Virus record (IMG/VR): IMGVR_UViG_3300028591_000150
Location: 28,308-92,307 of that record
Direction: 5' to 3' (one strand)
From: a virus
Taxonomy: Duplodnaviria > Caudoviricetes
DNA: 64,000 bases
Within the stretch, counting starts at the first letter, position 1, and each line of letters begins with the position of its first letter. The notes under the pieces are model-generated. The model did no database searches. It had not been told where the DNA came from and saw nothing but the letters and a program-made list of their open reading frames with translations. Shown piece after piece: positions 14,907-64,000 of this stretch. A program made the position numbers and the translations under genes.

Positions 14907-17900
14907 CTATTCTAAAGTATCTATCTCTTGAATATAGTAGTTAGTGCCGTCATAGCATAGGCAAACTATGGCCACATCACCTTGGTTCATACTCCAATCA
15001 TTGCTTCCCCATTGGCTAATGTCATGGTCGTATATTGGCGACGAAGCTGTTATATAAAATTTTGCAGTACCTTTACATGCAATTATTGTTAGTCGAACGC
15101 AAAAATGTTCTTCACTTCCCAAACCTAATTGCTGCTGAACATCTGACAACTCGGGCATGTAGAAAGTACCACTTGCAGTACATTTTACTAAAAAGGTTGT
15201 TCCAAGAGTTAAATTAAAAGTGTTGACATTATATGGTTCGACTCCAGTATAATACAAATATCTCCCTTTTTCTATCACTCCACCATGCGCTTGCAACGCT
15301 CCGTCTAATCGCAAAGCGACATTAGCAAAGCCGACGTTATCGGAATGTATTCTTACGGCAGGTTTATACATGTCATGGTCTTTGCTTGATGCCATTCTAC
15401 GATATATGTACATTGCGCTGTCACATAAATAATCACTTCTGTTTTCGTATGGGTCTGAATCTTTTCCAATAAATACTTTCAGACTTGCAATTTCATTGCC
15501 AGAATAGCTAATTCTCTGTCCAAGACGGAAAGACGATTCATGAAGGTAAGCAAAGTTGTTACTTGAAGTTTTCCAGTTGTCTATAATGCCACAATACAAG
15601 CCATCATCACCGATATGGAACGGCCCAATTATCCCTTGATTGGCTGTAATCTTTCCTTCTATGTCAACATTCTGTGCCCTTAGACCATTTATATAAGCAT
15701 TCTGCGCTGTCAAACCATTTATGGTCGCATTTGTTATGACGGCATCATCTGCGTGAAGCGCTCCAGAAGTTGATTCAATCCAAATCTTTGGGCTCTGCAA
15801 TGTACCAGCAGAATTTTGGAACGTTACTTTATCTCCACGTAGTTCTATGCTACGATTGTCACCGCTTATGTTTATACCAGTCTCTCCAAGCTTGTTTATG
15901 ATAGCCAAGGATATGTCGTCTGCAGTCTGCAAGATAAGACTCAACGACTGATCAAGGATAGGAGCATCAAACTCTGTGACAGACGTACCTTTCTCCAACT
16001 GAGGGAAACGTATCTTTGGAGCTATCACATACAACGTGTAGTTTCCACTTAAAGCTTCGGTTATCTGAATAACCGCAGCACATTCCCTACGTTCCGCTCC
16101 GCTGTTTGTGGTTATGGGTATCGAGTTTGAAGAATTTTTCAAATAGCATGTAATCGAGGGATAGTCAACAGCAGGCGTTCCAGTCTCTGATACTGCAATA
16201 GAATGCAAAGACAGCATATACGATTCAGCTGCAAGAGAAATACCTTCTAAAGCAAAGCAATTATCATCTGGCGAGTTTTTGATAAACCAACTATCTTCGT
16301 CAACTGATATATCGCCAGACGGAGTAAAAGTGCCATTATCCCAAACACCACTCTTCCAACCATTACCAGTCAACACACCATTGAGTATGTTTCTCGCCAA
16401 GGTGTTTTGGGAAACCATAGACATCAATCCTGCAGCAGTCTGTATCAGTTGTGATATGTTACCCTCTGCATCACTGACACGGGTTTCAATGCCGTTTATA
16501 TCAACCTTCAAAGTTGACTTCGACTCATCATTCAAGCCTCTGTCTTCCCATCCTGTCTGTGTAGCGACGAACCGATGCCCATTCGACTGATTGATATAGT
16601 AATCGCCTGGATCCGCCTTATACGAAGTCCATGTGATGCCACCTCCGGAAGGAATGCCTGTAATTGGATTTATGACAGCAGGCTCCACGTGACATATTTT
16701 GAGTGCATTGTCAGTTGCGATATTGTTATACACAAGTAGCACAATAGCGCCATCCGTAGCCATCCCGGTTGACTGGCCTGGAATGTTGTCATACCTATAG
16801 GCCAATCCTTTGTATCTCTCGTTATAAAGTTCTTCTCCAGTCATTCCGTTGTCAGTTGTAACAACAAAAGACGGGGCAACAAACTTGTTACCTGCGACTG
16901 GACTGATTCTTGTGCGCTCCTTGCCGTTTAGACTCCAATCAATAGATGTGCCATCCGTATAGCCGACACCGAGCATTTCTCTGATGCAAGGTGCGTCACT
17001 ACCAACAGTCTCTATCGTAATGAGGTTAGACAAACTTCTGTCTAACCAGTCTCCATAGCATACGATATTGTCAAGTGCCTCTGGTCTGTCGCTACCCGTG
17101 AGATAAAGCTGAACATCGTTTTCGTCTGTGTAGTTCGCAAGGTCGATGTAGTTATGCGTCAGTCCGTCTTCGAGGATATGGTTCGGCTTGGTATAGTCTT
17201 GTTTTGTCACAGCCGTTTCGGTTGCAGTCACAGCCCTCCAATACAATTTGTTCGTGACGTTCATTCCGTACCATGTGCCAGACTGGGTGCCGCTACCTTG
17301 TGACTGATCGAATGTCTGACATCTTGCCAACATGCCGACTCTCCATGTGTTGATTGTCCTTGTAGTGCCATCATCGGCCTTTATCCAGCATCGGAATATA
17401 TCTACCTTATCCCAATCTTCTGCGCTCATTGTGGAGCGAACCATTTTTTTTCTGCTGAGTATCTTGCCTACTAACGACAATGGAACAAGTCGAAGAACCC
17501 AAGGCACTTTGATATACTCATACCCGAGCACCTCCTCTCCGACAATCTCATCTCCATCTTTTATGAGGTGTATATAGTCCACTTCCTCGATGATGCTTGC
17601 AGCAGGCGAGAACACATAGTTTCCTGCCATTGCAACGAACTTGCGGACTTCAAGTTCATTGAAAACGGCCTTCATTCTGACAAACAGATTATCGACAACC
17701 AACCTTGAATTGCCGTTGCCATCATCATCAGTAAGCTGCCAGCCAGTACCGAACATTGAATCTCCACCGCTAAAGTTAAGACTCTGCAATGTCTTTGTAA
17801 GAATGTTCTTTGCCACACGGAGAATGCCGCCTATGACACCACTTTCTGACACCTCCAATCCAAGATTCTTGCGTGTCGCATTGTCAATATCCGTTGTCGT

Positions 17901-18740
17901 GGCACCGCTAGTTCCCAGAGCCTTCAATGAACGTGCAACAATGTCACCATCCTCAGAAAAACCGAACAGTCCTGATGCCTTAACCCACAGGCCTTTCACA
18001 AAACCTATCAGCCCCGTTGCTTGGTCGTCAGCATCCTTGCGAAGATAGTGTTGTGTGACGAAATTAGGAGTGGCGACCAATGTGTCGCTGTCAACATTAT
18101 CAGTAGAGGCTGTTGCGACGCCTTTAAGTTCGTGGTCGCCAAGGAAAAGATTCTCGAAGAATGAGCCTGCATTCATCACAATCTTTTTCAGGAACGTCAC
18201 AGTGTTACTCACCTTCGAGTATGAGTACCAGTCGGTTTCGGACATATTCATTATGTCCTCGTATGTACCAAGAGAACCCCATGTGATTTCCTGCGTCCAT
18301 TCGCGCTTCAAAACCCCGCTATTGATGACTGGCGCACTGATGATGCCCTGCAGCCATATATAAAAATAATCACTGGAGCCTATCTGCTCGTCATTGGCGT
18401 TCACACCATAGATGTCTATCTTTTCACTTGGAAAGACAATAACGGCTTGTGTGCTGAAACTAGACCTGCGAGGGATAGCTGCATAGACATACTTTTGGGT
18501 ATCGCTATTGAAATACGTCGGGGATATGACAAGCGGCCATCGTTTCGGATTTCTCCCATTGTCAAGTCCAAGCCCATCGCCATTTGCACCACCCGGTGTA
18601 ACCGACTCTATATAGCAGGATATGACAGCTCCGCTTGCTACGCTTCCCTGTATGCGATTTTCGTTGCCAAGCGCATTCAAAGTTATGTTGACAGCGTTTG
18701 GCGCTATCCAGTAATTATTTATTTTGGCTTCAATTCCCAT
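14907..18740 (-). CDS. tail/host-specificity protein
   Basis: 1277 aa; VDNLFVRMKAVFNELEVRK segment, coiled-coil and trimeric beta-repeat stretch, AT-rich variable C-terminus. Confidence 0.7.
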   Translation of the reverse strand: MGIEAKINNYWIAPNAVNITLNALGNENRIQGSVASGAVISCYIESVTPGGANGDGLGLDNGRNPKRWPLVISPTYFNSDTQKYVYAAIPRRSSFSTQAVIVFPSEKIDIYGVNANDEQIGSSDYFYIWLQGIISAPVINSGVLKREWTQEITWGSLGTYEDIMNMSETDWYSYSKVSNTVTFLKKIVMNAGSFFENLFLGDHELKGVATASTDNVDSDTLVATPNFVTQHYLRKDADDQATGLIGFVKGLWVKASGLFGFSEDGDIVARSLKALGTSGATTTDIDNATRKNLGLEVSESGVIGGILRVAKNILTKTLQSLNFSGGDSMFGTGWQLTDDDGNGNSRLVVDNLFVRMKAVFNELEVRKFVAMAGNYVFSPAASIIEEVDYIHLIKDGDEIVGEEVLGYEYIKVPWVLRLVPLSLVGKILSRKKMVRSTMSAEDWDKVDIFRCWIKADDGTTRTINTWRVGMLARCQTFDQSQGSGTQSGTWYGMNVTNKLYWRAVTATETAVTKQDYTKPNHILEDGLTHNYIDLANYTDENDVQLYLTGSDRPEALDNIVCYGDWLDRSLSNLITIETVGSDAPCIREMLGVGYTDGTSIDWSLNGKERTRISPVAGNKFVAPSFVVTTDNGMTGEELYNERYKGLAYRYDNIPGQSTGMATDGAIVLLVYNNIATDNALKICHVEPAVINPITGIPSGGGITWTSYKADPGDYYINQSNGHRFVATQTGWEDRGLNDESKSTLKVDINGIETRVSDAEGNISQLIQTAAGLMSMVSQNTLARNILNGVLTGNGWKSGVWDNGTFTPSGDISVDEDSWFIKNSPDDNCFALEGISLAAESYMLSLHSIAVSETGTPAVDYPSITCYLKNSSNSIPITTNSGAERRECAAVIQITEALSGNYTLYVIAPKIRFPQLEKGTSVTEFDAPILDQSLSLILQTADDISLAIINKLGETGINISGDNRSIELRGDKVTFQNSAGTLQSPKIWIESTSGALHADDAVITNATINGLTAQNAYINGLRAQNVDIEGKITANQGIIGPFHIGDDGLYCGIIDNWKTSSNNFAYLHESSFRLGQRISYSGNEIASLKVFIGKDSDPYENRSDYLCDSAMYIYRRMASSKDHDMYKPAVRIHSDNVGFANVALRLDGALQAHGGVIEKGRYLYYTGVEPYNVNTFNLTLGTTFLVKCTASGTFYMPELSDVQQQLGLGSEEHFCVRLTIIACKGTAKFYITASSPIYDHDISQWGSNDWSMNQGDVAIVCLCYDGTNYYIQEIDTLE
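16615..16802. repeat. 188-bp direct repeat, copy 1 (inside 1277-aa gene)
   Basis: Aligns without gaps to 19371-19558, about 14 mismatches, same reading frame. Confidence 0.95.
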
Positions 18741-18790
18741 TAGATTTCTCCGTTATTATCGTTTGCCCGATTTCATTATTACGTTTGCCG

Positions 18791-20221
18791 TTATAATGAC
18801 GGTCCATATATATCGAGTTGGACTTTGAACTCTATTGACATCATTGACGCTTTTACTTTGTCAATCAACATGGTTGTTTCTTCTGGAAGGACATGGCAAG
18901 GAACCCATATCGTTTGGGAGTTTTTGATTATTCCAATCCACATCAACTTAGCCATTAGGAACTCATGGATATACCATGACGCCCACGCTTCATCGAGCGG
19001 TCCGCTGGCGAGCGACCACGTTTCGTGATTTTCCGATTTTACAGCCAAAACACGACTGAACTTTTTCAGCGTTTCCTGACGGGCAATGGTGTATGACTCT
19101 GTATTGATGTCCACTTCTTTCTTGACAAGCGAAGTTACGCATACACTTTCCAGACATCCCATGCTGTTGACGAAGCGCAGATCGTAGCCGTTTGTTGGAC
19201 GCTCCACAACATATATTTCATGACCACCCACTGTCATCGCACCTTCTTCGGAAAGTGTCTGACTAACAGATTTCGGTCCGTCACTTGCGGCTAGTCCCTC
19301 TTCCCAACCAGTCAAAGTGGCGATATAGACTTTCCCGTCATACTGGCTAAGATAAGCATCATCGAGATTAGCCTTATACGAAGTCCAAGTGATGCCACCT
19401 CCGGAAGGAATGCCTGTAATTGGATTTATGATAGTCGGCTCAACATGGCATATTTTGAGCGCATTGTCTGTCTCGATATTGTTATACACAAGTAGCACAA
19501 TAGCGCCATCCGTAGCCATCCCGGTTGACTGGCCAGGAATGTTGTCGTACCTGTAGGCTGTGTTTACTTCCGTATCATAAGTGGGTTCGGCGCTAACAAA
19601 AACGGGATTAGCATCATCCGACATGTGATCAACTTCCATTCCGCGATTGATTGCCGAAGGATAGACAAATTCGATGTCTTTAAAAACAATCTCTGGAGAA
19701 GTGTTCGGCTTTCGCGACAGATATGTAACGTCAAGATACTCCATTCCGCTTTGGTCAACAGGCGCAGTCATTCTTTCTATGTCATTGAATGCGCCCTGAA
19801 AGGCATAGCAGTAGAAATGGTCGTCACCTACCGGTAATGATGGCCATGCCACCACGCCTTGATTGGACGACACATTCCCGTCCACCATCCACTCATCCCA
19901 TGCTTCTATGCGGAACTTGATATATGGATAATGCTCTGGCGGTTCTGGGGTGTACTCATACTTTTCTGCAATCGCCTGCAATGCAGAACTGATATCAAAC
20001 AGAGATGGCTGGGTGACATACGACTGTCCGTTCTGCTTTACTTCTGCAGGATGCGAGAAATCAAACGTCGTAAAGTCTTCATCGGTTTCAAGACCTGCAT
20101 AGACACGTACAATAATGCGATGGAATGTGCGGTTAGCACTATACGCCGCAGGCGACACCCTGAAAACGATGGGATTGCCTATGAGTGGTGAACCGCTGAT
20201 TAGTGATATTCCTTGTGCCAT
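18791..20221 (-). CDS. putative tail structural protein
   Basis: 476 aa, first gene of tail operon; LRFVNSMGCLES motif. Confidence 0.65.
   Translation of the reverse strand: MAQGISLISGSPLIGNPIVFRVSPAAYSANRTFHRIIVRVYAGLETDEDFTTFDFSHPAEVKQNGQSYVTQPSLFDISSALQAIAEKYEYTPEPPEHYPYIKFRIEAWDEWMVDGNVSSNQGVVAWPSLPVGDDHFYCYAFQGAFNDIERMTAPVDQSGMEYLDVTYLSRKPNTSPEIVFKDIEFVYPSAINRGMEVDHMSDDANPVFVSAEPTYDTEVNTAYRYDNIPGQSTGMATDGAIVLLVYNNIETDNALKICHVEPTIINPITGIPSGGGITWTSYKANLDDAYLSQYDGKVYIATLTGWEEGLAASDGPKSVSQTLSEEGAMTVGGHEIYVVERPTNGYDLRFVNSMGCLESVCVTSLVKKEVDINTESYTIARQETLKKFSRVLAVKSENHETWSLASGPLDEAWASWYIHEFLMAKLMWIGIIKNSQTIWVPCHVLPEETTMLIDKVKASMMSIEFKVQLDIYGPSL
19371..19558. repeat. 188-bp direct repeat, copy 2 (inside 476-aa gene)
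   Basis: See copy 1. Confidence 0.95.
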
Positions 20222-20241
20222 AACTTGATTTGTTTCTGCAA

Positions 20242-20277
20242 CAAAGGTACGGCAAAGTGAAAATAACAGACGGACAT
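20242..20277 (-). promoter_or_regulatory. putative phage late promoter ATGTCCG-N21-TACCTTTG
   Basis: Same architecture at 25135, 53757 and 53860; precedes tail operon. Confidence 0.75.
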
Positions 20278-20300
20278 TGTGTTTTATGAAAACTTATTCG

Positions 20301-20308
20301 TACCTTTG
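20301..20308 (+). promoter_or_regulatory. -7 element TACCTTTG for lipoprotein moron
   Basis: Matches Bacteroidetes TAnnTTTG, 33 bp before ATG. Confidence 0.55.
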
Positions 20309-20341
20309 CAGCAGAAAGTCAAACTTAAAACAAATGGTGAT

Positions 20342-20761
20342 ATGAAAACTACTAAGATTTTATTTGTAATGCTGCTAATGCTCGTAATGACAGGCTGCAG
20401 CAAGGATGACGACCAACAGAATCCGCCAAAGATTGACAATCCTGCACTGCTTGGCGTATGGACTAACGGGGATATCAAGACCACGAAAAATCTATCAGAG
20501 GCCGCTTACTTTGAGCAGAACAGTGTGCTTTTTCTCTACGAAGGAGCTTGGTATCATGGTAATTACTCTATTCTGGATGCCAATCACTTCACGGCCAAAG
20601 TCTGCAAGGTGACAAGAATGGATTTTACGTGGTTCGACAATTACAAAGCATTCTCCACAGACCCTTATTACTACGATTGGGTATTCATCTACAAAATCAC
20701 TGGCGACAATCTCTACTTAGAACGAGGCGGCAGGAGTATGAATCTTGTAAAATACCAGTAA
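20342..20761 (+). CDS. lipoprotein moron
   Basis: Signal peptide, lipobox VMTG-C, acidic SKDDD export-like signal; opposite strand to flanking tail genes. Confidence 0.8.
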   Translation: MKTTKILFVMLLMLVMTGCSKDDDQQNPPKIDNPALLGVWTNGDIKTTKNLSEAAYFEQNSVLFLYEGAWYHGNYSILDANHFTAKVCKVTRMDFTWFDNYKAFSTDPYYYDWVFIYKITGDNLYLERGGRSMNLVKYQ

Positions 20762-20774
20762 GTCATACAAATTG

Positions 20775-20810
20775 ATGATGCGCACCAAACAAGTCGTTTG
20801 TGCGCATCAT
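20775..20810. terminator. hairpin terminator between convergent genes
   Basis: ATGATGCGCA..CAAAC/GTTTG..TGCGCATCAT inverted repeat followed by T-rich tract. Confidence 0.7.
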
Positions 20811-20825
20811 TTCGTTTATTCCTCA

Positions 20826-23549
20826 TTAAATGATATAGAAGTCTATCGTTACTTCGCCCAAATTCTTGTCAACGGCAAGTTGGTACTGCACTTTGTCAAT
20901 AAAGCCTGTCATGTCACCAATCCGCCATAACTGCCTCCAGTGATTCGGAATATCCGCCAGCTGCGCAACTGTTGTGGATGCCTTGATGCGCACTTTCTTG
21001 CGATGAAGCAGGAAGAAGCATAGCGCGGCCATAAAAGTGTCATACAGTCCGCGAGTACGAATTTTCGTTTCCACCTTGCCTGTAACCTGATTAACGACAT
21101 CCGGGTCACATGGCACAAGCCATGATGAATCGTCAACCCATTCTTTCGGTTCGGTCGATATCTTCAACTGGCCGTTAACGTACTTATAACGGAAGGGCTT
21201 GTAGGCGGCAATCTTCAATGAAAAACGCTCGCCTTCTCCGATGCCTGATGCCGTACCGTTATAATCGAACTCGTTGCCTATCTGGTCCATAGTGTCGCTC
21301 GTCAGAGCATATTCGCCACTGACAGTCCGCCACTTGTCATTGTTGAAGCCGTCGTAATCGTGGCTGTAATTCTGCACAGTCATATTTGTTCCACCACCGC
21401 GCATCATGGCGACAGACAGTCCCCAGTCAATCTCCTGCAATGGTGAGTTGCCGTCATCCGTATCGCAAGGGTCATAGCTTTCAACCAGATTCAGAAACTC
21501 CGTAAGATATAAATCCACCAAGTCGTTAGACAGCACGTTGTTTATCCTGTAATCCACAAACTCGTGCTTGAAATCCTCGTCAACGTATGCAACGAGCATC
21601 GGCTGGCCACCGGATTGTATATCTTTAAAGATATACGTGTTCCCCTGCGTGTCCGTAGCTGTACGCTCTTTGTTCAATCCCAGCACAGAAATGGTGTTTA
21701 CATCGTTGAAAGCCATCGGCTGAAAGTCGCTGATGTACTCGCGGATGGTGCCGCGCTTATCGGCTACTGCAGAGCAGTCGCCAAGTTCTACTCCGTGAAA
21801 CTGCCCAACCTCGAAAAGCCGTGCGTCGGCCATTGTCTCACCATTTACCTTGTATCTGTAGGCATCGCCTGTGGTCAGGTCAACGTAAACCTTGGCGTTT
21901 GTGGCGCTTGCTTGCTTGGCAATGTCAATAAAAGTCTCGTCAATTAAGACGCGCCCTTCAGGATATTCTTTGTAGTCGAAATCGGTATCGTAATCGCTCT
22001 TCTTCCTACGGATATACTGTTCTTGCTCCTTTGGGGTGTTCTCAGCAGAATACTTCATGCGGAAGCCCGTAATCTTTTCAGTGAGTTTATACACGCGATG
22101 CACTTTGCCGTTGAAATTGACGGTCTGCAGTCGTGTGCCGTCCGGCATGACCTGTCGGAACACATCGCGAAGCAGATATGCAGTTACCTTATTCTTTTCG
22201 TAGTCATAGTGGAAGCGGATGCCAAACGATGCTTCAAGCGAGTCGAGTATGCTCTTTACGCTCGAGTCTGGAAAGTTATCGCTGTTGGCCCACATCTTGC
22301 AGACGTTACAGGAGAAAATGACTTTTCCAAGAGTCGCTGTGACAGTGATGGTCTGCACATCGTTCTTTCCTACTTCAACGTGTTCCCAGTTACCGCTATT
22401 CTTCTTGTAGTTGAACTCCTGTATCTGCTTCGGCTCAGGGTCTTCAACGCCAAGTTTACCTCCGCAACCACGAGAGTTGAGCCATTTATTCGCATCTTCA
22501 ATGCTATAAAAAGAATGTTCCTCGTCGGTCATTGGTTCAACGTCATACTTACAGTGAGTGGTGAAGAAACACAAATGTTTGAAATCTTCCACTGCAAGTA
22601 GCGCACTCTTGTCGAAATCCACGCCAAGGTGAGCAAACAGGCAGTCCAGGAAATAAAGCACATAGAAGCAGATGCCAGACTGCGGTCTGTCTGCATCCAG
22701 AACCCAATAAGGATATTTGCCTTCATACACATCTTCCGTGTCCTTCCGCTTGATAACGTCATCGCTGCTGGTTCCGTCATCTTTGAGCCCCTTGTGCAGA
22801 TAGCATACACGTGCATTGCAATACTTGGCGCCTCCTGCACCCCAGTGTTCGCTATTCTCACCGTATGCGTCCGTCACATTGATAAAGGTGGAGTTGGCAT
22901 AATCATCCACCTCCCGAGGTATATTCACCGTCTGACCTTCAGGATAGGTCTTTATCGTTTTAAGAACCGCCTGTTGTTTGTCTCCGGTGACAGCACAAAT
23001 GCCAGGATATGAGAATCCGAGTGCCTGCGGCTCGAAATCTCCTTCAACAGTATCGTTGTCATAAGTATAGTTGCTCCACTCGTCCTTCTTTCCTGACTGG
23101 AAATGGATATCCACCTTATAACTGTACGATACCTGTACGTGGATGTTGCCAATCTTCTCGCCAATCTGAATGCGGTCTTTCATCGGTACATCCTGACACT
23201 GCAAATCGCCTATCAAATCATCAAACGACTGTTTAGATGCGTCAATGTTCAGGCTCATGCTTCCTGCAAGTTCTTCTTCCTCCTGCACAACTGTAATGCC
23301 TGAATGCAATGGCAACCCTTCGCCATATACAACAGCAGGAAGACCGTCCATAGTCATAGGACTGACATCGCTCTGTACGTTGTCAATATTCTTCATCAAG
23401 TGCCTGTTCTGCTCAAATGGTGGATTGAACGGCAGGGAAAACATCTCTGTATCGTTAAAAAGGGGGTTGGCCAGTTCGAAGTCAATGGTCTGATCGGGAC
23501 GTAAGGTCATCTCCTTTCCCGTTACTTTTATGGCGAGGTGGCTTTTCAT
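20826..23549 (-). CDS. putative tail/baseplate structural protein
   Basis: 907 aa; N-terminal ELANPLFND..FSLPF pattern; structural operon. Confidence 0.6.
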   Translation of the reverse strand: MKSHLAIKVTGKEMTLRPDQTIDFELANPLFNDTEMFSLPFNPPFEQNRHLMKNIDNVQSDVSPMTMDGLPAVVYGEGLPLHSGITVVQEEEELAGSMSLNIDASKQSFDDLIGDLQCQDVPMKDRIQIGEKIGNIHVQVSYSYKVDIHFQSGKKDEWSNYTYDNDTVEGDFEPQALGFSYPGICAVTGDKQQAVLKTIKTYPEGQTVNIPREVDDYANSTFINVTDAYGENSEHWGAGGAKYCNARVCYLHKGLKDDGTSSDDVIKRKDTEDVYEGKYPYWVLDADRPQSGICFYVLYFLDCLFAHLGVDFDKSALLAVEDFKHLCFFTTHCKYDVEPMTDEEHSFYSIEDANKWLNSRGCGGKLGVEDPEPKQIQEFNYKKNSGNWEHVEVGKNDVQTITVTATLGKVIFSCNVCKMWANSDNFPDSSVKSILDSLEASFGIRFHYDYEKNKVTAYLLRDVFRQVMPDGTRLQTVNFNGKVHRVYKLTEKITGFRMKYSAENTPKEQEQYIRRKKSDYDTDFDYKEYPEGRVLIDETFIDIAKQASATNAKVYVDLTTGDAYRYKVNGETMADARLFEVGQFHGVELGDCSAVADKRGTIREYISDFQPMAFNDVNTISVLGLNKERTATDTQGNTYIFKDIQSGGQPMLVAYVDEDFKHEFVDYRINNVLSNDLVDLYLTEFLNLVESYDPCDTDDGNSPLQEIDWGLSVAMMRGGGTNMTVQNYSHDYDGFNNDKWRTVSGEYALTSDTMDQIGNEFDYNGTASGIGEGERFSLKIAAYKPFRYKYVNGQLKISTEPKEWVDDSSWLVPCDPDVVNQVTGKVETKIRTRGLYDTFMAALCFFLLHRKKVRIKASTTVAQLADIPNHWRQLWRIGDMTGFIDKVQYQLAVDKNLGEVTIDFYII

Positions 23550-44987: not shown

Positions 44988-46181
44988 ATGGCAACAATTA
45001 CGATAGAGATTGGAAAAAAGAACAAGAAAAGGGTGCATCCCGTGTCTTTCCTGATATGCGAAGGGAGGACTAAGAAGCGCATCCCTACCGGAATTACCGT
45101 GTCGGACTCTGAGCTTACCACGAACGGAAAGAAGATTCGTGAGCCAGAAAAGGCGAAGCAGATAGAGAGGAAACGCCAAGAACTGCAGGAGCGCCTTGAT
45201 AGATTATCGTTGGAGATAATCGGGCAGAAGGAGATAGATGCAGGTGAAATTGTTGAACGGATTACCGAAAGTAAGGAAGAACTTGATTTCTTCATTTTTT
45301 CGGAAGAATGGATTGCGAAGTCACCTGTTAAAGACAAGAAGAATTACTTCTGCATGTTAAATTCACTGGAGCGTCATCTGGGATGTAGAGCGCTCCCATT
45401 CAATAAGATTACCTATAAGCTGTTAGATGACTATGGACTGACTTTGAGATGTAAACCACGCGCTCAGTCCCTATATCTTGGTCTCATACGCCACATTTAT
45501 CGAGAAGCAATGCGGCGCTACAACACAGACTTTGATACAGTTATACCCAATGACCCTTTTTTGCGGTACAGAGTACCAAAGCAGCAAATTAAAAAAGGGG
45601 TCCGAGCGCTGACCTTAGAACAGTTGATTTCCATCTATAACTATAAAGGCAAGGCTCATAGTCGTGCGCAACTTGCCCGAGACTGCTTCGTTCTTTCGTT
45701 CTGCCTGATGGGGATGAATAGCGTTGATATGTACGAGGCAAAGTGCATAAAAAACAATGTAATCAAGTATAATCGTGCAAAAACGCAGGACAGAAGAAGC
45801 GACAATGCCTATATCGAAGTGAAAGTCCATCCTGTTATAAGCGGCCTGATGAAATTATATAAAGGAAGAAGCAGAGTGTTTTCATTCTGTGAGCGATATG
45901 CTGATGCACCAGCATTTAATAAATCAATCAATATCGGGCTGAAAGAAATAGGCAAAGATATAGGTATTGACTGTCTTCAGTTTTACCAGGCACGCCACAC
46001 ATTTGCTACGTTGTCCCGTAACATGATGCACTTCTCCAAGAGCGACGTTGATGAAGCCTTAAATCACGTTGGATCCTATGACATTGCTGATATCTACATT
46101 GCAAAGGACTTTACAATTATCAACGAAAATAACTTCAAGCTGCTCGACAGGGTATTTGAAACAAAAAACAAGGAGGTGTAA
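44988..46181 (+). CDS. int: tyrosine integrase (Bacteroidetes type)
   Basis: N-terminal arm-binding domain, GMNSVD, RAKT, YQARHTFAT, ALNH, catalytic Tyr in ADIY. Confidence 0.9.
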   Translation: MATITIEIGKKNKKRVHPVSFLICEGRTKKRIPTGITVSDSELTTNGKKIREPEKAKQIERKRQELQERLDRLSLEIIGQKEIDAGEIVERITESKEELDFFIFSEEWIAKSPVKDKKNYFCMLNSLERHLGCRALPFNKITYKLLDDYGLTLRCKPRAQSLYLGLIRHIYREAMRRYNTDFDTVIPNDPFLRYRVPKQQIKKGVRALTLEQLISIYNYKGKAHSRAQLARDCFVLSFCLMGMNSVDMYEAKCIKNNVIKYNRAKTQDRRSDNAYIEVKVHPVISGLMKLYKGRSRVFSFCERYADAPAFNKSINIGLKEIGKDIGIDCLQFYQARHTFATLSRNMMHFSKSDVDEALNHVGSYDIADIYIAKDFTIINENNFKLLDRVFETKNKEV

Positions 46182-46182
46182 A

Positions 46183-46518
46183 ATGCTCGAATACAATTAC
46201 AACTTCCTACGAGAATGGATAGAACAGACCAGAACTACATATAAGGAAGTGATGCAGGCTGTTGGCAATAGTAGCAGTAGTAATCTACATGACTGGATTG
46301 GCGACGGACCTGCGCAAAAGAGGCAGGCGGATAAGGGAGAGCGAGTACGTCCTGTAGCAATGAACGTGGAGTCAATGATACGTTTCTGTAACCATTTTAA
46401 ATTGCCGATCGGCGTGTTTTTTCTGAAAGATGGCAAACCTCTGTCAGAAACAACCGAAAAGACTTGGCAACAACTCGACATGCGGCTCCGTGTCATAGAG
46501 GAATTATTGAAGATATAG
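46183..46518 (+). CDS. XRE-like HTH protein
   Basis: ATG 1 bp after int stop; MIRFCNHFKLPIGVFF; 3' end overlaps rep. Confidence 0.55.
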   Translation: MLEYNYNFLREWIEQTRTTYKEVMQAVGNSSSSNLHDWIGDGPAQKRQADKGERVRPVAMNVESMIRFCNHFKLPIGVFFLKDGKPLSETTEKTWQQLDMRLRVIEELLKI

Positions 46519-47776
46519 GCTCAGGGCGTTTCGGCACACTATACATCCAAGTGATATTATTGCCAAAGTGCTTCGTGAGCGTTGGCCTTACTAGTTCTCC
46601 AGACACATGCGGCTGCACAATCCATTGGTAGTCCTCGTAGCTATTCATCCGGAGCATAAGTGTATGCGTACTATCTTCCCACGACTCGAATGAAAGCGAT
46701 GATATGACGTGAATGCTGTAATCGCGAGTGCATTTCCCAAGCATATCGGCCTTGCATTGTTCCCAGCGATCAGCTGCTTCTTGCTTGCGAATAATAGTTT
46801 GCTTTGCCATGTCTTTAGCCTCTCCTGTTGCAGGTGTGTCTTTCTTTGTAAGTAGAGAATATCCGATGCCGAGGTCGGTGCTCATAATCGTAAACTCTAT
46901 GAAGTCAGGGTCGCCGCGCCTTCGTCCGTTCAGATAGACAGGCTCATACGAAAATGTGATGTCTGTATGGTTATCACGCGCCATCTGGTCGAGGTCGTCC
47001 TTCACGGCATCCAGCACCTTCGTCTTGAAGTGGGCGAACTTCTGATATGGTACCACCCACTCGCCCGTCGCATCATCCTTGAACGTTTCAAAGCCGAGAA
47101 AGTTCTTAATCTCCTGCACCGTCAGGCGGACGCGGGTGTGCCGCTCCCTACCCATCAGCTCTTGTAACTTGAAGTAGAGCCTTGGTGTGCTCCGCTTCGT
47201 GGCATATCGGGCAATCAGCTTCGGGTGATTGGCGTAGCCTTGACTCATGTCGAAGGCATACTGCGCCACGTCTTTGTTAATCTCCACTTCGATGTAACCG
47301 CTATGCCTCGCAGACTCCACGATAATCTCGCCCTGCTCGTCGCGCTTGCGGTAGTAGTCGCCCGTCCTCGGCACGCGGAACTTGGTGAACACAGGCGAGA
47401 AGATGGTATGTCCCGTCGGCTTGCCGTTCTCATCGAACTCCTGGTGCTCCACAAGCAGGTTCATTTCCTCTATGGCCTTACGCACCACCTTGTAATTGGC
47501 GGGGTCAATGTCCATATCTGCCAGGTTGATGCGGAACGGCGGGATGCCATGCTCCAAAAGATACTTCGTAAAGAGTGCCCTTGGTTTCGCCTCTGTGCTG
47601 TTCAGGTTCAGGTCGAAGAAGTTCTTCACATACTGCTGCAGGTGGTCCGACACCATAAGCATCGTGTCCTGTTGGAACAAAGTTAGCTTCGGCCCGAGCT
47701 TGATGTACGAGAACGGTGTCTTGATCCACACCTCCTGCCGTGCGCACTCCATCAACTGTTGCTTGTTTTCTTCCAT
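46493..47776 (-). CDS. plasmid-type replication initiator (Rep_3/RepB) with C-terminal DnaA_N-like domain
   Basis: PRLY..LTVQEIKNFLG..YQKFAHFKTKVLD..DITFSYE winged-helix pattern. Confidence 0.8.
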   Translation of the reverse strand: MEENKQQLMECARQEVWIKTPFSYIKLGPKLTLFQQDTMLMVSDHLQQYVKNFFDLNLNSTEAKPRALFTKYLLEHGIPPFRINLADMDIDPANYKVVRKAIEEMNLLVEHQEFDENGKPTGHTIFSPVFTKFRVPRTGDYYRKRDEQGEIIVESARHSGYIEVEINKDVAQYAFDMSQGYANHPKLIARYATKRSTPRLYFKLQELMGRERHTRVRLTVQEIKNFLGFETFKDDATGEWVVPYQKFAHFKTKVLDAVKDDLDQMARDNHTDITFSYEPVYLNGRRRGDPDFIEFTIMSTDLGIGYSLLTKKDTPATGEAKDMAKQTIIRKQEAADRWEQCKADMLGKCTRDYSIHVISSLSFESWEDSTHTLMLRMNSYEDYQWIVQPHVSGELVRPTLTKHFGNNITWMYSVPKRPEPISSIIPL

Positions 47777-48828: not shown

Positions 48829-48860
48829 AGTTATTAAGTAGTTATTAAGTAGTTATTAGG
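48829..48860. repeat. 11-bp tandem repeat AGTTATTAAGT (parS-like)
   Basis: Two exact copies plus a partial third, between parA and partner gene. Confidence 0.55.
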
Positions 48861-49677
48861 TAAATAGTTCCATACATAATTTTTCATAGTCTATACCTGG
48901 CGCAGAGTAGGGCCTGTACTGATAGATGTCCTTTGTCATTGTCTGCGATTCGTTCATCTTCACACTTCGCCTTATCTTTGTCCTGCATACATATCCTTTG
49001 TATGATCGCTCCAAATAATCAATGAATCCGCGAGCTATTTTTGGCCTTGCATCCACCATTGTCGGGAGCAAACCGCGAAGCTGCAGATTTTTGTTTAGTT
49101 CCGACTGAACTTCGCGCATGGCAAGGATAATATTCCCGAGCCCATTAACGCTAAGCCCTTCCATCTGAACAGGCACCAACAAACCAGTAGCAACAGCCAT
49201 AGCGTTGTATGTTGATTGGCTCAATGCGGGTGGGCAGTCTATCAGTACATAATCAAAACTTTCGATGATGTCTGTCAGTCCGATGCCCGTGTGGTCGTCT
49301 AACGGCAGGCAAAAGCACTTCTGTAACACCTTTTTCGGGTTCATCTGTCGGAACAAATCACTATCCACATCCTGCATCTCCATATCTCCTGGGACAAGAT
49401 ATACGCCTTCTCGATTAGTCTTATATACAGGCAAGTTAGTTCCTGTACGCATAGCGCTGTAAATGGTTGGTGTGGTAAAAAAATCATCGGACTGATTCCA
49501 TCCGTGTAGAATACTTAGGTGCATCTGAGGATCGAGGTCTATAACCAAAACACGCCATTCTTGGTGCTCGCGAACCATCGCAGCAGCTAGGTTCTGGACG
49601 GTAGTAGTCTTCCCTACCCCACCTTTGTTATTCACTATTGCCAACACTTCTTTCAGTCTTGTTTTGCTTGTTTCCAT
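48856..49677 (-). CDS. parA: ParA partition ATPase
   Basis: NKGGVGKTTT, IDLDPQ, LIDCPP. Confidence 0.92.
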   Translation of the reverse strand: METSKTRLKEVLAIVNNKGGVGKTTTVQNLAAAMVREHQEWRVLVIDLDPQMHLSILHGWNQSDDFFTTPTIYSAMRTGTNLPVYKTNREGVYLVPGDMEMQDVDSDLFRQMNPKKVLQKCFCLPLDDHTGIGLTDIIESFDYVLIDCPPALSQSTYNAMAVATGLLVPVQMEGLSVNGLGNIILAMREVQSELNKNLQLRGLLPTMVDARPKIARGFIDYLERSYKGYVCRTKIRRSVKMNESQTMTKDIYQYRPYSAPGIDYEKLCMELFT

Positions 49678-51410: not shown

Positions 51411-51526
51411 CAAATTACGCCAAAAATACAATATATACATTAAATTTAACAATATTTTACAACTACAATGTATGTATTTACAATAATTTACAAAAACAAT
51501 ATATATATTTATAAATTCCCGAAAAG

Positions 51527-60677: not shown

Positions 60678-61238
60678 CTATAAATAGACCACCTGCGCTC
60701 CGTGCTCCTTTGCGTAGGCAAGTTCAGGATAACTTGCCTTTATTTGAGCATCATACTCCTCCTTTGTCTTGTCGCCCGTTTCCACGAGGCGGTCTATAAG
60801 CGAGCCAAGTCCGTCGCAATATACCTCCTCGTGGCGGCTGCCTTCGATGGCGAAAAATTGCTCGTCCGCCAATTCCACCTCGTACACGTCCGCCCCTTCA
60901 TTCAGGCTGACGATCACCCACCCGTCATGCTCATAGCCATGCACACGCAGCGCGATGGCGGGCATCTCGCGCCAGCGGATCACTCGGTGAACAATCTTCC
61001 CCTCAATCGTCACGCAGCCCCAGGAACTGATGACTCCAACCCAGTGATCCTTGCCGAAGTCCTCCGCAAGGCTGCCGAAGATTTGCCGCAGGGCCGTGGC
61101 CGCGATGTTCTTTGCATAGTCGCGGCTCTCCCAATACCGCTCGGGGTCCTTGTTGTTGAAAGGTGTTACAAAACTTTGGCTCATGCCGTTGCCGTTCTCG
61201 TTTGCGATCTTTGTCGCATTCATTTTAATTGTTGCCAT
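60678..61238 (-). CDS. conserved Bacteroidales phage early protein
   Basis: 186 aa; SWG..L.V.G..H.GWV.VSLNEGADVYEV..VYCDGL..LID.LVE. Confidence 0.7.
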   Translation of the reverse strand: MATIKMNATKIANENGNGMSQSFVTPFNNKDPERYWESRDYAKNIAATALRQIFGSLAEDFGKDHWVGVISSWGCVTIEGKIVHRVIRWREMPAIALRVHGYEHDGWVIVSLNEGADVYEVELADEQFFAIEGSRHEEVYCDGLGSLIDRLVETGDKTKEEYDAQIKASYPELAYAKEHGAQVVYL

Positions 61239-61333
61239 AATCTATAATTTTTTTAATGCCCTATAAAGGGCGGTTAATTATTTTGTGATTTCCTTAATTT
61301 CCTATAATGTGTATAACGTATAATATATTATAT

Positions 61334-61925
61334 ATGTGTGTGCCTGTTCCTTTGGCGGTCATCCGTGGGCGTGCGGTCATCCGTGCCCGTGTGCCTGTTC
61401 CTGTGGCGGTCATCCGTGGGCGGTTGGTCATCCATTGGCCGTGTGCGGTCATCTGTGGGGCGGTTTGCCCCTGTGTTTGTGTCTGTGTCATATCGTGGGC
61501 GGTTGGGACACGCTCCCCTGTTGGCCTGTTCCTGTTTGCCATACCCCCGTGCCCCGTTTGGGCGTGTGCGGTCATCCGTTGGCCGTGTGCCTGTTCCTGT
61601 TCCTGTTCCTGTGGCGGTCATCTGTGGGCGGGCGGTCATCCGTGCCCCCATCTGTGCCCGTGTGCCTGTGCCTGTTCCTGTGGCGGTCATCTGTGGGCGG
61701 GCGGTCATCCGTTGGGCGGTTTGCCCCTGTGTTTGTGTCTGTGTCATATCGTGGGCGGTTGGGGTCATGCTCCCCGTGTTGGCCTGTTCCTGTTTGCCAT
61801 ACCCCCGTGCCCCTGTTGGGGCGGTGCGGTCATCTGTTGGGGCGGTGCGGTCATCTGTGCCCCATCTGTGCCCCGTGGCGGGCGCAAACAGGGCGGGGCG
61901 GTCATCCGTACCCCTTTGCCCTGTT
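61334..61925. repeat. complex non-coding repeat array
   Basis: 12 GCGGTCATC copies, CCTGTT runs, ~100-bp direct repeat (61458-61555 / 61714-61813); very few A on the + strand. Confidence 0.9.
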
Positions 61926-61943
61926 TGGCCGCCTGTTGGCGTG

Positions 61944-62753
61944 TTATTTTACATTTTCCAATATCTTTGCAACCAATTGGGCGGGGTTTGTGCCGTGTGT
62001 GTCTTCATAATCCAAATATGAGTCATATTTGACGTTTGCACCTTTTAATAATTCTTTCGCCCGTGCCCCGTGTACGCTCGTGCCGTAACCGCTCACCCAT
62101 CTTTTTTCTGTGAGCCCCTGTGTTATTTCTGTTATCCTGAATATATGACGGCGCAAAAATGACGGGTTGGCAATAGGATATGCAATTTGCATAATGTTAA
62201 GCGGTTGGCAATCTGTTTTAATACGTACAACAGTCACGAGGGCCTCTTTGTCCTGTGCACGGGACACCTCGGCGGCGTATAAATTAACCCGTACCCCGTT
62301 GGCCTCTATTTGGTTAATGGCGGCCAAAAGGTTTGCACCCGCTTTTGCCATATCATCCGCCTTTATGTCACAATTGACGGAGGTGTTATAAATAATAGTT
62401 ACAACACGGGCGCGGGTTTTTCGGTTTTTCTTTGCCAACATGCAAACAGGATCGCCCGCAAGAAAAGCTCCGACAATTGGGGTATGTCCAACAATAGCGG
62501 GCACGGGGCGGGGGCGGTTTTGTTTTGTCCGTGCAATAATGTTTGTATATTCTTTTTTTACTTTATCTGCGCTCTTTTGGTCCCCGTTACGGAGTAAATC
62601 GTTGGCGGTTGCAAAATCCTTTGTCCCTGTAAATTTGGGGTCCCCCAAATCGGAGTACAAAGATTCATTTTCAAATAATTTTGATACGGGGGCCGTGTTG
62701 CAAAATTCTGCAAAACTATAGATATTGTTGAATTTGTGTGTGTACGTGTTCAT
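61944..62753 (-). CDS. vWA-like partner of AAA+ ATPase
   Basis: Degenerate MIDAS (IIYNTSVN), IEANGVRVNLY, NPSFLRR..GYG; downstream of AAA gene. Confidence 0.65.
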   Translation of the reverse strand: MNTYTHKFNNIYSFAEFCNTAPVSKLFENESLYSDLGDPKFTGTKDFATANDLLRNGDQKSADKVKKEYTNIIARTKQNRPRPVPAIVGHTPIVGAFLAGDPVCMLAKKNRKTRARVVTIIYNTSVNCDIKADDMAKAGANLLAAINQIEANGVRVNLYAAEVSRAQDKEALVTVVRIKTDCQPLNIMQIAYPIANPSFLRRHIFRITEITQGLTEKRWVSGYGTSVHGARAKELLKGANVKYDSYLDYEDTHGTNPAQLVAKILENVK

Positions 62754-62860
62754 TTTCTTTGTTTTATTGTGTTTGTGTCTGTGTTCCTGTTCCCTGTGGC
62801 GGTCATAACAGGGCGGGGCGGTCAGCTGTGCCCCTGTGCCCTGTTTGCCCATCCTGTTTG

Positions 62861-64000
62861 TTATGCGGCCTCACGTATTAACTTATTGTGTGCTTTTGCC
62901 CATACATTTTCTTTGTGGTCTAAATTCATATATAACGTGTTTAATATGTCACGTTGCAAACCGCTGAGTGTGGCGGTTTTGAGGGTCTGTGCGAGGTCCC
63001 CGTTGGTTAATTGGCGTATTCTAGCGGCGCGGCGCATGTCACGGGGGGATATAGGCAAAGTTACGCCGCACGTTGCAACCGCTTTTTTAAGGTCTGTATA
63101 ATACTCCAACAAAGCGGCGTCCCCGCCACAATTGGCGAGCTCTATGTTTGGATCTGCAAATACCTCAACCCGTGCCAATCCGTTAACAAAACTTATATCC
63201 TGTTCGTTGCGATCGTACCCGTCCGAGGCACCCATGCCGATCGTATTGTCTGCACAGATAAGGCGGAAATTTTCATGTGGGTAAATAAGCTCGCCCGCAA
63301 ATTCGACGGGGTCCCCGTCCCTCATGCCGTTAATGGCGAGGAGGGCCTGTGGGTCACTTGCAAATACCTCGTCAAGCAATAACACGCCGCCGTTTTTATA
63401 GGCACGGGCGGCGGGGGTCAATACCCTTTGCCCGTTTGCGTCAACATACCCCGTATAATCGTATTTTGTGCCTGCAAATCCCTGTTTGTAAAAATCCAAA
63501 CCGAGGGCCTGTGCAATCTGTTTTGCGAGCGTGGTTTTGCCTGTTCCGGCGGGGCCGTATAACAGGACGGGTATATTATTATTAACGAGGTTAAGGATTA
63601 AACCAAAATCCCTGTGCGTTTGTCCCTCTATGGCGTGTGTGCCTGTGGCGGTTTTTACCTCAATAACGCGGGCGGTCTGTTGGTTTGCCTGTGCCGCCTG
63701 TGCGGTCATCTGTTCAATAAGTGGCGTTAATTCTGTTAAGACTCTATTATATATATCTGTGGCCAAAAAATTAGACAAACCCGCGAGTATATTTGTGGGG
63801 TCTGTGGCGGGTGCGGTCTGTGCCTGTGGGCGTGGGGTTGGTTTGGGGGTTGGTGCGGGTTTGGGGGTTGGTACGGGGGCGGGTTGCTCCTGTTCCTGTT
63901 CCTGTGCGGGGGCGGGTTGGTCATCCGTTGGCACGGGTGCGGGTTGCTCGCGTACCTCTATACTATTAACAGGCTCACCAATAGCGGCGGCTATAGCGGT
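62861..64000 (-). CDS. MoxR/CbbQ-like AAA+ ATPase, 5' partial
   Basis: GPAGTGKT, LLLDEV, HENFRLICADNT, ISPR; frame open to window end; Pro/Gln-rich linker. Confidence 0.85.
   Translation of the reverse strand, partial: TAIAAAIGEPVNSIEVREQPAPVPTDDQPAPAQEQEQEQPAPVPTPKPAPTPKPTPRPQAQTAPATDPTNILAGLSNFLATDIYNRVLTELTPLIEQMTAQAAQANQQTARVIEVKTATGTHAIEGQTHRDFGLILNLVNNNIPVLLYGPAGTGKTTLAKQIAQALGLDFYKQGFAGTKYDYTGYVDANGQRVLTPAARAYKNGGVLLLDEVFASDPQALLAINGMRDGDPVEFAGELIYPHENFRLICADNTIGMGASDGYDRNEQDISFVNGLARVEVFADPNIELANCGGDAALLEYYTDLKKAVATCGVTLPISPRDMRRAARIRQLTNGDLAQTLKTATLSGLQRDILNTLYMNLDHKENVWAKAHNKLIREAA

Follow-up and report, generated by a model that had tools for sequence, protein, structure and literature searches.

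A tetramer-purged island with direct-repeat arrays at the contig end of a rumen phage: a candidate first-exposed, defence-evading segment

Why should the last 2.7 kb of a phage contig lack a set of tetramers that the rest of the same genome tolerates? The question is raised by the stretch of DNA analysed here (the window), 64,000 bases that correspond to bases 28,308-92,307 of a 92,307-base viral contig, IMGVR_UViG_3300028591_000150, which is classed as linear in IMG/VR and has a CheckV completeness of 94%. Segment 61,321-64,000 forms the final 2.7 kb of this 92.3-kb contig and is part of an island of about 4 kb, which comprises direct-repeat arrays, a gene for a MoxR-class AAA+ ATPase and a gene for a von Willebrand factor A (vWA)-like DUF7192 protein. 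We rank first, and favour tentatively, a reading in which a temperate rumen siphophage carries a terminal, first-exposed and defence-evading "pre-early" island, with this segment as its inner 2.7 kb. The segment and its inner edge contain the following features.

61321-64000, no strand given: in-window part of the word-purged island (word counts, contig geometry).
61239-61320, minus strand: inner boundary, AT-rich, with the promoter and leader box that precede the following early gene at 60678-61238 (sequence).
61321-61943, minus strand: array B, degenerate direct repeats (repeat analysis).
61944-62753, minus strand: DUF7192 gene (Pfam PF23822, phrog_1909).
62754-62860, minus strand: intergenic mini-array of the same vocabulary (ACAGGAAC, CCGCCCC, GGCACAG), with 7% T on the sense strand (repeat families).
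62861-64000, minus strand: gene for a MoxR-class AAA+ ATPase (AAA_5, phrog_249 "CobS-like"), its 5' end cut by the contig end (Pfam, PHROGs).

Exact word counts in 61321-64000, set against expectations scaled to that length from the rest of the window or genome, gave no CCAG or CTGG (9.4 and 7.1 expected from the rest of the window), no GAGA or TCTC (5.3 and 11.6), no GTAG or CTAC (9.6 and 5.1), no GAAG (13.3) and a single CTTC (21.1). These figures agree with the zero and near-zero counts of a first-pass annotation of the window, as does the exact count of 12 such words in the neighbouring gene at 60678-61238, where that annotation had given about a dozen. The purge reaches further than the four word pairs named there, and the effect is stronger than was stated. 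A set of 15 words is represented by 13 occurrences in the segment versus 177 expected from the rest of the genome, and beyond the four pairs a dozen tetramers are absent, among them, on the plus strand, GCAG, GATG, GTCG, GAAC, CGAA, ACTG, AGAG and GACC. Among plus-strand dinucleotides, the observed/expected ratio is 0.39 for AG, 0.34 for GA, 0.64 for CT, 0.77 for TC and 1.91 for AA, while GGGG and CCCC are enriched about 10-fold. The segment contains 1197 distinct 6-mers, compared with 1782 +/- 55 in control windows of equal length, and the k-mer profile along the genome, a check that the same annotation had proposed, found no other 1-kb window of the 92-kb genome that resembles it.

The deficit was examined in the two coding genes with two controls, in which codons were either redrawn with the codon usage of the genome (a) or permuted among each gene's own synonymous codons (b). 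The eight words of the first-pass annotation are found 0 times in the AAA gene and once in the DUF7192 gene. Under control (a), 33.9 and 23.3 are expected (z -6.5 and -5.2), and under control (b), 24.0 and 12.8 (z -6.2 and -4.3). The depletion therefore survives codon shuffling, and the suggestion that synonymous codon choice has been constrained is borne out; since the deficit persists even when a gene's own codons are merely permuted, codon order is constrained as well. The codon-neighbour rule amounts to avoidance of NTC, NCT, CTG and AAG. Relative to distant homologues, Ser, Phe and Glu are scarcer in the island proteins, and Pro, Gln, Ala and Thr are commoner. When the coding DNA of six genomes was pooled and compared with permutations of each gene's own synonymous codons, CCAG was found 2 times versus 81 in the permutations, CAGC 9 versus 87, CAAG 4 versus 65, CTTG 3 versus 64 and CCGG 1 versus 45. 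Words are depleted in both orientations, as expected if duplex DNA is what is recognised. Coding and non-coding DNA of the island alike is kept free of CCAG/CTGG, GAAG/CTTC, CAAG/CTTG, CAGC/GCTG, GCAG/CTGC, GTAG/CTAC and CCGG on both strands.

The rest of the genome tolerates the same words, with observed/expected ratios of 1.23 for CAAG, 1.16 for GAAG, 1.21 for GCAG and 0.99 for CAGC, and local avoidance of this kind is sensible only if the segment is exposed alone or first. What the genome outside the island avoids, under codon permutation, is a set of 4-bp palindromes: GATC (50 versus 205), CCGG (70 versus 161) and TTAA (88 versus 172), and further AGCT, CGCG, GGCC, AATT and CTAG. The island is not a stronger form of this genome-wide restriction avoidance, as the correlation between its word z-scores and those of the rest is -0.07, and it is enriched in GGCC, AATT and TTAA. 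CTGC, GATG and CATC are enriched outside the island.

The inner edge of the purge is sharp, as the first-pass annotation had proposed, and falls at 61,240-61,320; to its left the composition is normal again. The boundary contains a small GCCC-N4-GGGC hairpin (61257-61272) and one DnaA-box-like 9-mer (61308-61316, a match to TTWTNCACA, of which there is none within the array), and its box GTATATATAATATAT...TTATAGGAAATTAAGGAAAT also closes the array in the relative L007. The 600-bp repeat array that had been noted at this edge is array B, where 61,321-61,943 carries 12 exact copies of GCGGTCATCYGT, all on the plus strand. Read on the sense (minus) strand, its units are ACRGATGACCGC, ACAGGAACAGG, GGGCACAGG and CCCCGCCCC, arranged in a super-repeat of about 256 bp. 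The statement that the genes point inward did not hold, as both lie on the minus strand, co-oriented with the early genes on their left and not facing each other. On the opposite side, the island extends about 1-1.5 kb past the contig end, and the contig of the closest relative reaches 600 bases further at the AAA-side end.

By protein search, orthologues were identified on contigs from rumen samples, one set at 67-94% identity and another near 46%; megablast of 24 kb against GenBank phages gave no match. The relatives share one gene order: late (tail) genes, sometimes a divergent helix-turn-helix (HTH) gene, about 0.9-1.5 kb of non-coding DNA, the AAA gene, the DUF7192 gene, an array of 0.5-0.8 kb and small early genes. 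Arrays equivalent to array B are found in L007, L014, L018, L020 and L022. The composition island measures 3.3-4.6 kb in the relatives and is kept in five lineages, with both edges sharp in L007 and L014, the loci that show both sides, and the boundary thus recurs in related phages. The 15 words are observed versus expected 36/266, 38/307, 32/317, 33/271 and 23/253 times in five relatives, so that they are 7-14 times under-represented in the window and these five; in a relative with 46% AAA identity the figures are 126/231, a twofold deficit. The objection of a simple recent acquisition, raised in the first-pass annotation, fails, as the island occupies the same place in relatives at 71-78% AAA identity and, more weakly, at 46%. 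Between L007 and L020, the synonymous divergence (dS) is 0.31 and 0.16 in the island genes and 0.12-0.29 in flanking genes, with a ratio of non-synonymous to synonymous divergence of about 0.15, and transitions are not in excess over transversions (61:64 and 25:15 in the island; 16:16, 16:4 and 26:36 in the flanks). Because dS in the island is the same as in the flanks, it is a statistical property that is kept and not a set of fixed sites: sites turn over freely, and the word statistics are held by continuing selection on words.

In all lineages, the outer edge of the island is a conserved non-coding element of about 100 nucleotides. It reads ...TAACTTGCTGA..ATCA...AAACCCGATGCC...CGAGACCGCCGCCACACTG and is followed by a variable GC hairpin and TATATGC; the sequence of the hairpin varies while pairing stays. 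The element matches no Rfam family. In scans with its 14- and 16-mers, most of the matches listed were due to chance, and a few true relatives could be picked out among them. It was located, from sequence, at the following places.

Contig base 1 of the window phage (outer half; outside the window): boundary element.
L007:9434-9620: boundary element.
L014:5033-5230: boundary element.
L011:9363-9560: boundary element.
L018:4547-4740: boundary element.
L020:1347-1540: boundary element.
L093:1300-1480: boundary element.

Contig ends cluster in this element around one point, which lies in ...AAACCCGATGCC...CGAGACCGCCGCCACACTG directly after CGAGAC. When the first bases of the contig studied here are reverse-complemented, their last letters are ...CGCAAGAC, and the break coincides exactly with the conserved GAC. 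Since the contig start thus aligns with the outer half of the element and stops at GAC, the contig is a whole genome opened within the island. It lacks about 1-1.5 kb, made up of array A, a promoter, a small open reading frame (ORF) and about 95 codons of the ATPase gene. A second genome, G002 (IMGVR_UViG_3300021387_001464; 111,678 bases, CheckV 100%), starts with GACCGCCGCCACACTG and ends 32 nucleotides past the same GAC. It carries a 32-nucleotide terminal direct repeat with one mismatch (bases 1-32 and 111647-111678) that starts exactly at GAC, which probably explains why it is classed as linear despite 100% completeness. A 2-kb rumen contig starts 4 nucleotides ahead of GAC. Three independent contig ends therefore fall within 4 nucleotides of one GAC, with conserved sequence on either side, a cluster that repeats or strain variation explain poorly. 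This is indirect evidence for a physical end of the DNA. On the simplest and most probable reading, packaging cuts within the element, which would make the cut either a fixed end or the point where a terminal repeat begins.

The element is also found in distant phages, G001 (129.5 kb) and G002, which share it with the window phage but not the genes or composition behind it, and in both a one-sided purge of 5-12 kb begins precisely at the element. In G001, the density of six words (CCAG/CTGG, GAAG/CTTC and CAAG/CTTG) is 24-36 per kb ahead of the element but only 1-4 per kb over the 5 kb that follow, and it climbs back gradually until about 12 kb. The purge in G002 covers the initial 9 kb (CCAG/CTGG 0 versus 33 expected from trinucleotides), and the opposite contig end is normal. 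The purged zone of these phages consists of AT-rich coding sequence whose complexity is ordinary. In the codon-permutation control it contains CGAG 1 time versus 26, GAAG 12 versus 44, GGAG 11 versus 32 and CTGG 0 versus 14, and the next 6 kb past this zone show no deficit in the same control.

The reading that we favour would account for this polarity as follows. From outside to inside, the island runs from the conserved element through array A, a promoter, the MoxR-class ATPase and its vWA-like partner to array B, which extends up to the next early promoter. It would be exposed and expressed before the rest of the genome is protected, and only in the island would the recognition words of host sequence-specific nucleases matter. 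We propose that differences in the purged words between related lineages reflect the different systems of their hosts. The purge, its boundaries, its conservation and the clustering of contig ends are observed, whereas a physical end, the order in which DNA is exposed and nucleases as selecting agent are inferred.

Restriction avoidance in first-entering DNA is already known, and the closest precedent is that of T5 and BF23. These phages resist Type I, II and III restriction and CRISPR (clustered regularly interspaced short palindromic repeats) systems unless sites are placed in the first-transferred region, a region that a long stretch of non-coding repeats closes off in T5. The pattern here is what these experiments would lead one to expect: duplex words are purged in a single segment, on one side of a probable DNA end, and the word sets differ by lineage. 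As in T5-like phages, there is a segment of a few kilobases, probably terminal, with a handful of genes that would be expressed first, and array B corresponds to the long non-coding repeat region at the inner side. Sensitivity in T5 depends on sites in the first segment only, and a purge confined to the island fits this; the segment is nearly free of 15 words that are not avoided elsewhere in the genome (13 versus 177) and that may be recognition sites of host enzymes. T5-like phages differ in being virulent and in carrying the segment within a terminal repeat of about 10 kb, whereas an integrase and a Rep_3 initiator are encoded here, and in place of genes A1, A2 and dmp there is an unrelated pair of a MoxR-type ATPase and a vWA-like protein. 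The T5 stop region contains inverted repeats, palindromes and eight paired DnaA boxes. A search of 61200-64000 for inverted repeats found none; because array B lacks these, palindromes and the DnaA boxes of the T5 stop region, staged injection is an analogy and not a finding, and no observation here supports a two-step injection in which array B gives the stop signal, conceivable though it is. It is doubtful, in our estimate, that a clade of temperate rumen siphophages of Bacteroidota delivers its DNA in a polar or staged manner from a conserved terminal site, with the first 4-12 kb as a "stealth" segment recoded, even in codon junctions and amino-acid composition, to avoid what host defences read, the array as a stop or buffer and the MoxR and vWA-like proteins as pre-early effectors. 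Were this staged delivery true, first-step transfer of the T5 kind would be seen for the first time beyond the T5 group, and in a temperate phage.

A second precedent exists in T7 and T3, where gene 0.3 (ocr) enters first and Type III sites are biased to one strand. In these phages the order of entry shapes where sites are tolerated, and strand bias serves as a means of evasion. The way in which purged words return little by little across 5-12 kb of G001 and G002 is reminiscent of DNA that enters slowly and progressively. Here, no Ocr-like gene was recognised, and inverted site pairs are not reduced in the island. Consequently, strand bias as such gives no Type III immunity, and immunity through single-orientation sites to two-site (Type III or ISP) enzymes was rejected on the same ground.

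Several observations weigh against a first-exposed, defence-evading segment. Many contigs of relatives run through the element, although this is expected for a terminal repeat or for intracellular forms, and the arrays are a further place where contig breaks gather, for which their repeats would be cause enough. As the contig is broken inside the island and many related contigs break in arrays, position at a contig end is no evidence by itself. Were array A a terminase site of the cosB kind, packaging would begin at this end and injection would finish with it. In the sister lineage L152/L162, the array that follows the element is built of CCTTGAAG, CCCTTGCAG and GTGAAGATGCAG, and the favoured words of the window clade are absent.

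L152:1975-2540 (IMGVR_UViG_3300028797_006177), strand not given: sister-lineage array (sequence).

This array includes CTTGAAG and GCAG, words purged in the window clade, and the lineage purges ACCC, CCCC, GAGA, CCAA and CAAC, of which ACCC, CCCC, CCAA and CAAC are favoured in the window clade. Purged word sets are therefore lineage-specific, and because of this mirror set, the "purge" may in part simply reflect which words a lineage favours. GGCC, AATT and TTAA are 2-3 times commoner in the island than in its flanks, though avoided by the rest of the genome; 6-mer diversity in the island is down by only about one third; and the T5 stop region finds a counterpart here only in direct, one-strand repeats with a single DnaA-like 9-mer at the edge. 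Restriction evasion does not require extreme strand asymmetry or a 10-fold excess of G4/C4, and it leaves strand-asymmetric, almost three-letter arrays without explanation. Mirror vocabularies, oriented words and the scarcity of T point to a second constraint besides any evasion, most simply protein-binding arrays.

If the favoured reading is true, sequence alone locates the entering end of uncultured phages, and purged words reveal the defence specificities of hosts, which would be useful for host assignment and for the choice or engineering of phages of gut and rumen Bacteroidota. The T5 logic of site-free first-exposed DNA would then be used far beyond the T5 group, reshaping even protein composition. 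What is new is a codon-controlled, kilobase-scale purge that starts from a conserved element in several temperate rumen phage lineages, the nearly three-letter one-strand arrays and a MoxR/vWA-like gene pair in terminal position. Whatever the mechanism, the conserved boundary element, the lineage-specific arrays beside it and the polar purge that starts from it are new descriptive facts.

Among the alternatives, the one that survives best, though we consider it rather unlikely, takes the vocabulary itself as the driver. The island would be a cis-acting platform whose lineage-specific words are bound by one or a few proteins, such as the small subunit of terminase at a cosB-like site, a repressor of the "stoperator" type, or a partition or protecting protein; selection for many weak copies, or gene conversion from the arrays, would pull the genes into the vocabulary, and the missing tetramers would be its reverse side. 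The oriented words are indeed conserved across relatives: ACAGGAAC is found 70 times in the sense versus 4 times in the opposite orientation, CCGCCCC 89 versus 0, GGGCACAG 55 versus 0 and GCCAACGG 53 versus 0, with background frequencies of 0.03-0.1 per kb. They gather in four patches, one of which is the linker-coding part of the AAA gene, and contigs that are identical elsewhere can differ in array length, by whole units. Beside the shared element every lineage uses a vocabulary of its own, the enriched and depleted sets of the window clade mirror those of L152, and the reduced number of distinct 6-mers (1197 versus 1782 +/- 55) fits a restricted vocabulary. However, dS in the island genes is not lowered, which indicates coding DNA without fixed sites, and the purge in G001 and G002 spans 5-9 kb of ordinary AT-rich coding DNA that lacks the GC-rich array words.

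The type of the HTH_31 repressor does not co-vary with the GATGACC unit, so that this protein was rejected as its ligand; the AAA protein belongs to the NorQ/CbbQ class; and the Rep_3 initiator gene lies 14 kb away with small repeats of its own, which makes it unlikely that the arrays are its iterons. A precedent for dispersed sites exists in mycobacteriophage L5, in which about 30 dispersed copies of one 13-bp site are bound by the immunity repressor. These stoperators are likewise short, asymmetric sites, oriented one way with respect to transcription, in the early region of a temperate phage, some of them inside genes, whereas the arrays here are dense and multi-word, and the nearby HTH protein shows no co-variation. 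Lambda cos, in which lineage-specific cosB repeats come after the conserved cut site cosN, provides the other comparison, as the short conserved element at which contigs end here leads directly into lineage-specific direct repeats. Here, however, the element is adjoined by the AAA and DUF7192 genes on one side and by small genes and then the head protease on the other, the arrays measure 0.3-0.8 kb and recur three more times, and a cos region explains no kilobase-scale purge. Genome-wide searches with terminase profiles from Pfam and PHROGs gave no match, and candidate packaging genes about 27 kb away went unrecognised by them.

A selection that acts on the RNA, or on the single-stranded non-template DNA, of an immediate-early transcription unit is improbable in our view. 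The agents would be RNA-cutting defences or toxins that prefer certain dinucleotides, or modifiers of thymidine in single-stranded DNA. The bias of the arrays is one-stranded: sense-strand T amounts to 5% in array B and to 5-10% in arrays in general, and sense-strand observed/expected ratios are 0.36 for CT and 0.38 for TC versus 0.68 for AG and 0.60 for GA. Sense-strand codons avoid NTC, NCT and CTN, Ser, Phe and Glu are under-used, and the zone of each lineage begins ahead of its first early gene and contains only co-oriented genes. The strongest deficits nevertheless affect both orientations (CCAG and CTGG, CAAG and CTTG, the palindrome CCGG), and array A lies upstream of the promoter box. 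We know of no agent with such dinucleotide or thymidine preferences for these hosts. A structured RNA in array B was rejected, as folding of both strands gave no structure signal (z -1.4 and +1.3) and no Rfam family was found; neither Rfam families nor tRNAs were found in the island or in relatives, and the exact array unit had no match in IMG/VR.

Gene callers also place antisense ORFs over the arrays, as follows.

Window 61307-62032, plus strand: antisense ORF.
L014:5002-5631: antisense ORF.
L018:8301-9137: antisense ORF.
L020:4557-5132: antisense ORF.
L022:3049-3645: antisense ORF.

An antisense protein is unlikely, as the lengths vary (161-278 amino acids), no family is matched and stop codons are merely absent; plus-strand ORFs such as 61307-62032 exist because TAG and TGA are lacking.

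A local mutational regime without adaptive value is very unlikely. Under this explanation end resection, an R-loop or strand displacement at an origin would often leave one strand of the segment unpaired, and context-dependent transitions accumulating on it would yield a G+T-rich strand, homopolymer runs and low complexity. The plus strand of the island is indeed poor in A and rich in G (0.168 and 0.282, versus 0.244 and 0.220 elsewhere), the GC skew changes sign at 61 kb, and the dinucleotide steps AA, CC and GG are raised while AG, GA, CT and TC are lowered. However, the island shows neither an excess of transitions nor a raised dS; through random A-to-G change, AG and GA would be gained and not lost, and the purged sets differ among lineages of the same architecture.

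We give still less weight to a Chi-like platform for end protection or recombination, in which oriented motifs would switch AddAB/RecBCD from degradation to RecA loading and so limit the acquisition of CRISPR spacers. The G/T-rich strand runs 5'->3' to the putative end, so that the 3'-ending strand lies at the outer end, and G-rich words such as GGGGCGG and CCTGTGCCC occur in a single orientation. Terminally clustered Chi sites have been described in a lambdoid phage. Against this reading, the Chi sequence of Bacteroides AddAB was not established as of 2010, which leaves no motif to match. A few sites would be enough for this function, which leaves the recoding of genes and the purge of words unexplained, and the L093 array has the opposite strand polarity. 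Mutation bias, Chi-like protection, RNA-level selection, repressor stoperators and Rep_3 iterons are thus all ranked below the favoured reading. An artefact or foreign DNA, whether a chimeric contig end or a recent cassette with the composition of its donor, could be suspected from the unique composition at a contig end and is refuted: neither chimerism nor position at a contig end accounts for the island, because it lies between the same neighbours inside contigs of 88 and 110 kb from other samples, and its composition is kept at 46-78% protein identity with saturated synonymous sites.

The contig retains the C-terminal 379 residues of the ATPase, of which the full-length orthologue P0003 (474 amino acids) is 94% identical. 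Profile matches are to PF07728 (39.1 bits, cut-off 22) and PF00004 (39.6 bits), and the Walker A motif GPAGTGKT is present. In the AlphaFold2 model, an N-terminal domain is followed by a disordered stretch (91-162) and the AAA+ module. This disordered Pro/Gln/Glu linker (about 63,800-63,960) is encoded in array vocabulary. Foldseek aligns the model with NorQ and CbbQ (E 1e-13, template modelling score to target 0.68-0.73), and a role as replication initiator or helicase is unsupported, as the matches are to the NorQ/CbbQ class.

The DUF7192 protein matches PF23822 with E 1.3e-38 (133.4 bits, cut-off 27). Its start is likely the Met of MNTYTHKF, as the longer ORF to 62852 enters the intergenic mini-array; the orthologues have 271 amino acids, and the AlphaFold2 model has a mean confidence (pLDDT, predicted local distance difference test) of 79.6. 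The best fold matches of the C-terminal half are the metal-ion-dependent adhesion site (MIDAS) domain of MDN1/Rea1 and the vWA domain of NorD (Z 5.1-5.8). Almost all of the top 50 VIA-align rows are vWA/MIDAS domains, though Z is only 3.8-5.8, and the best Foldseek match is the NorD vWA domain with E 0.03. The MIDAS motif DxSxS is absent, the first core strand reading VVTIIYNTSVNCD (N-T-S-V-N), and neither an Asp nor a Ser of the motif is among the invariant columns. A literature search for DUF7192 found no paper. By gene order and fold matches, the pair resembles NorQ/NorD, CbbQ/CbbO and CobS/CobT, in which a MoxR AAA+ ATPase is paired with a vWA adaptor. It differs from them in the short partner (271 amino acids) with a weak fold match (Z 5-6) and N-T-S-V-N in place of DxSxS, and in the extra N-terminal domain and disordered linker of the ATPase. 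The two proteins look like a MoxR-type remodelling ATPase with an adaptor, to judge from these models, and not like replication proteins.

Ahead of each early gene there is a CCGCCC(C)-N4-6-GGGGC motif, then an A run and about 8 nucleotides to ATG, often with TTATAG. It looks like a conserved early-operon signal whose half-sites double as array words, and examples are found at the following positions (sequence; strand not given).

Window 61250-61275: early-gene leader signal.
L007:9960-10000: early-gene leader signal.
L007:12885-12930: early-gene leader signal.
L007:13305-13350: early-gene leader signal.

Just outside the island, beside the divergent HTH gene, one relative carries a gene for an IS605-type OrfB/TnpB (Cas12f-like) protein (L018:2461-3711, L019:463-1713). 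In the genome studied here (G000), about 17.8 kb of other genes separate the tape-measure gene (17784-22550, minus strand) from the island, and in the L007/L014 relatives this gene ends 0.3-2.5 kb from it. Elsewhere in the window, a Bacteroidetes-type tyrosine integrase (weak Pfam match; 44988-46181, plus strand) is encoded beside a protein with a Rep_3 initiator WH2 domain (46493-47776, minus strand), and from these genes the phage may be temperate and/or plasmid-maintained. Small tandem repeats are found at 48829-48862 and 51444-51511.

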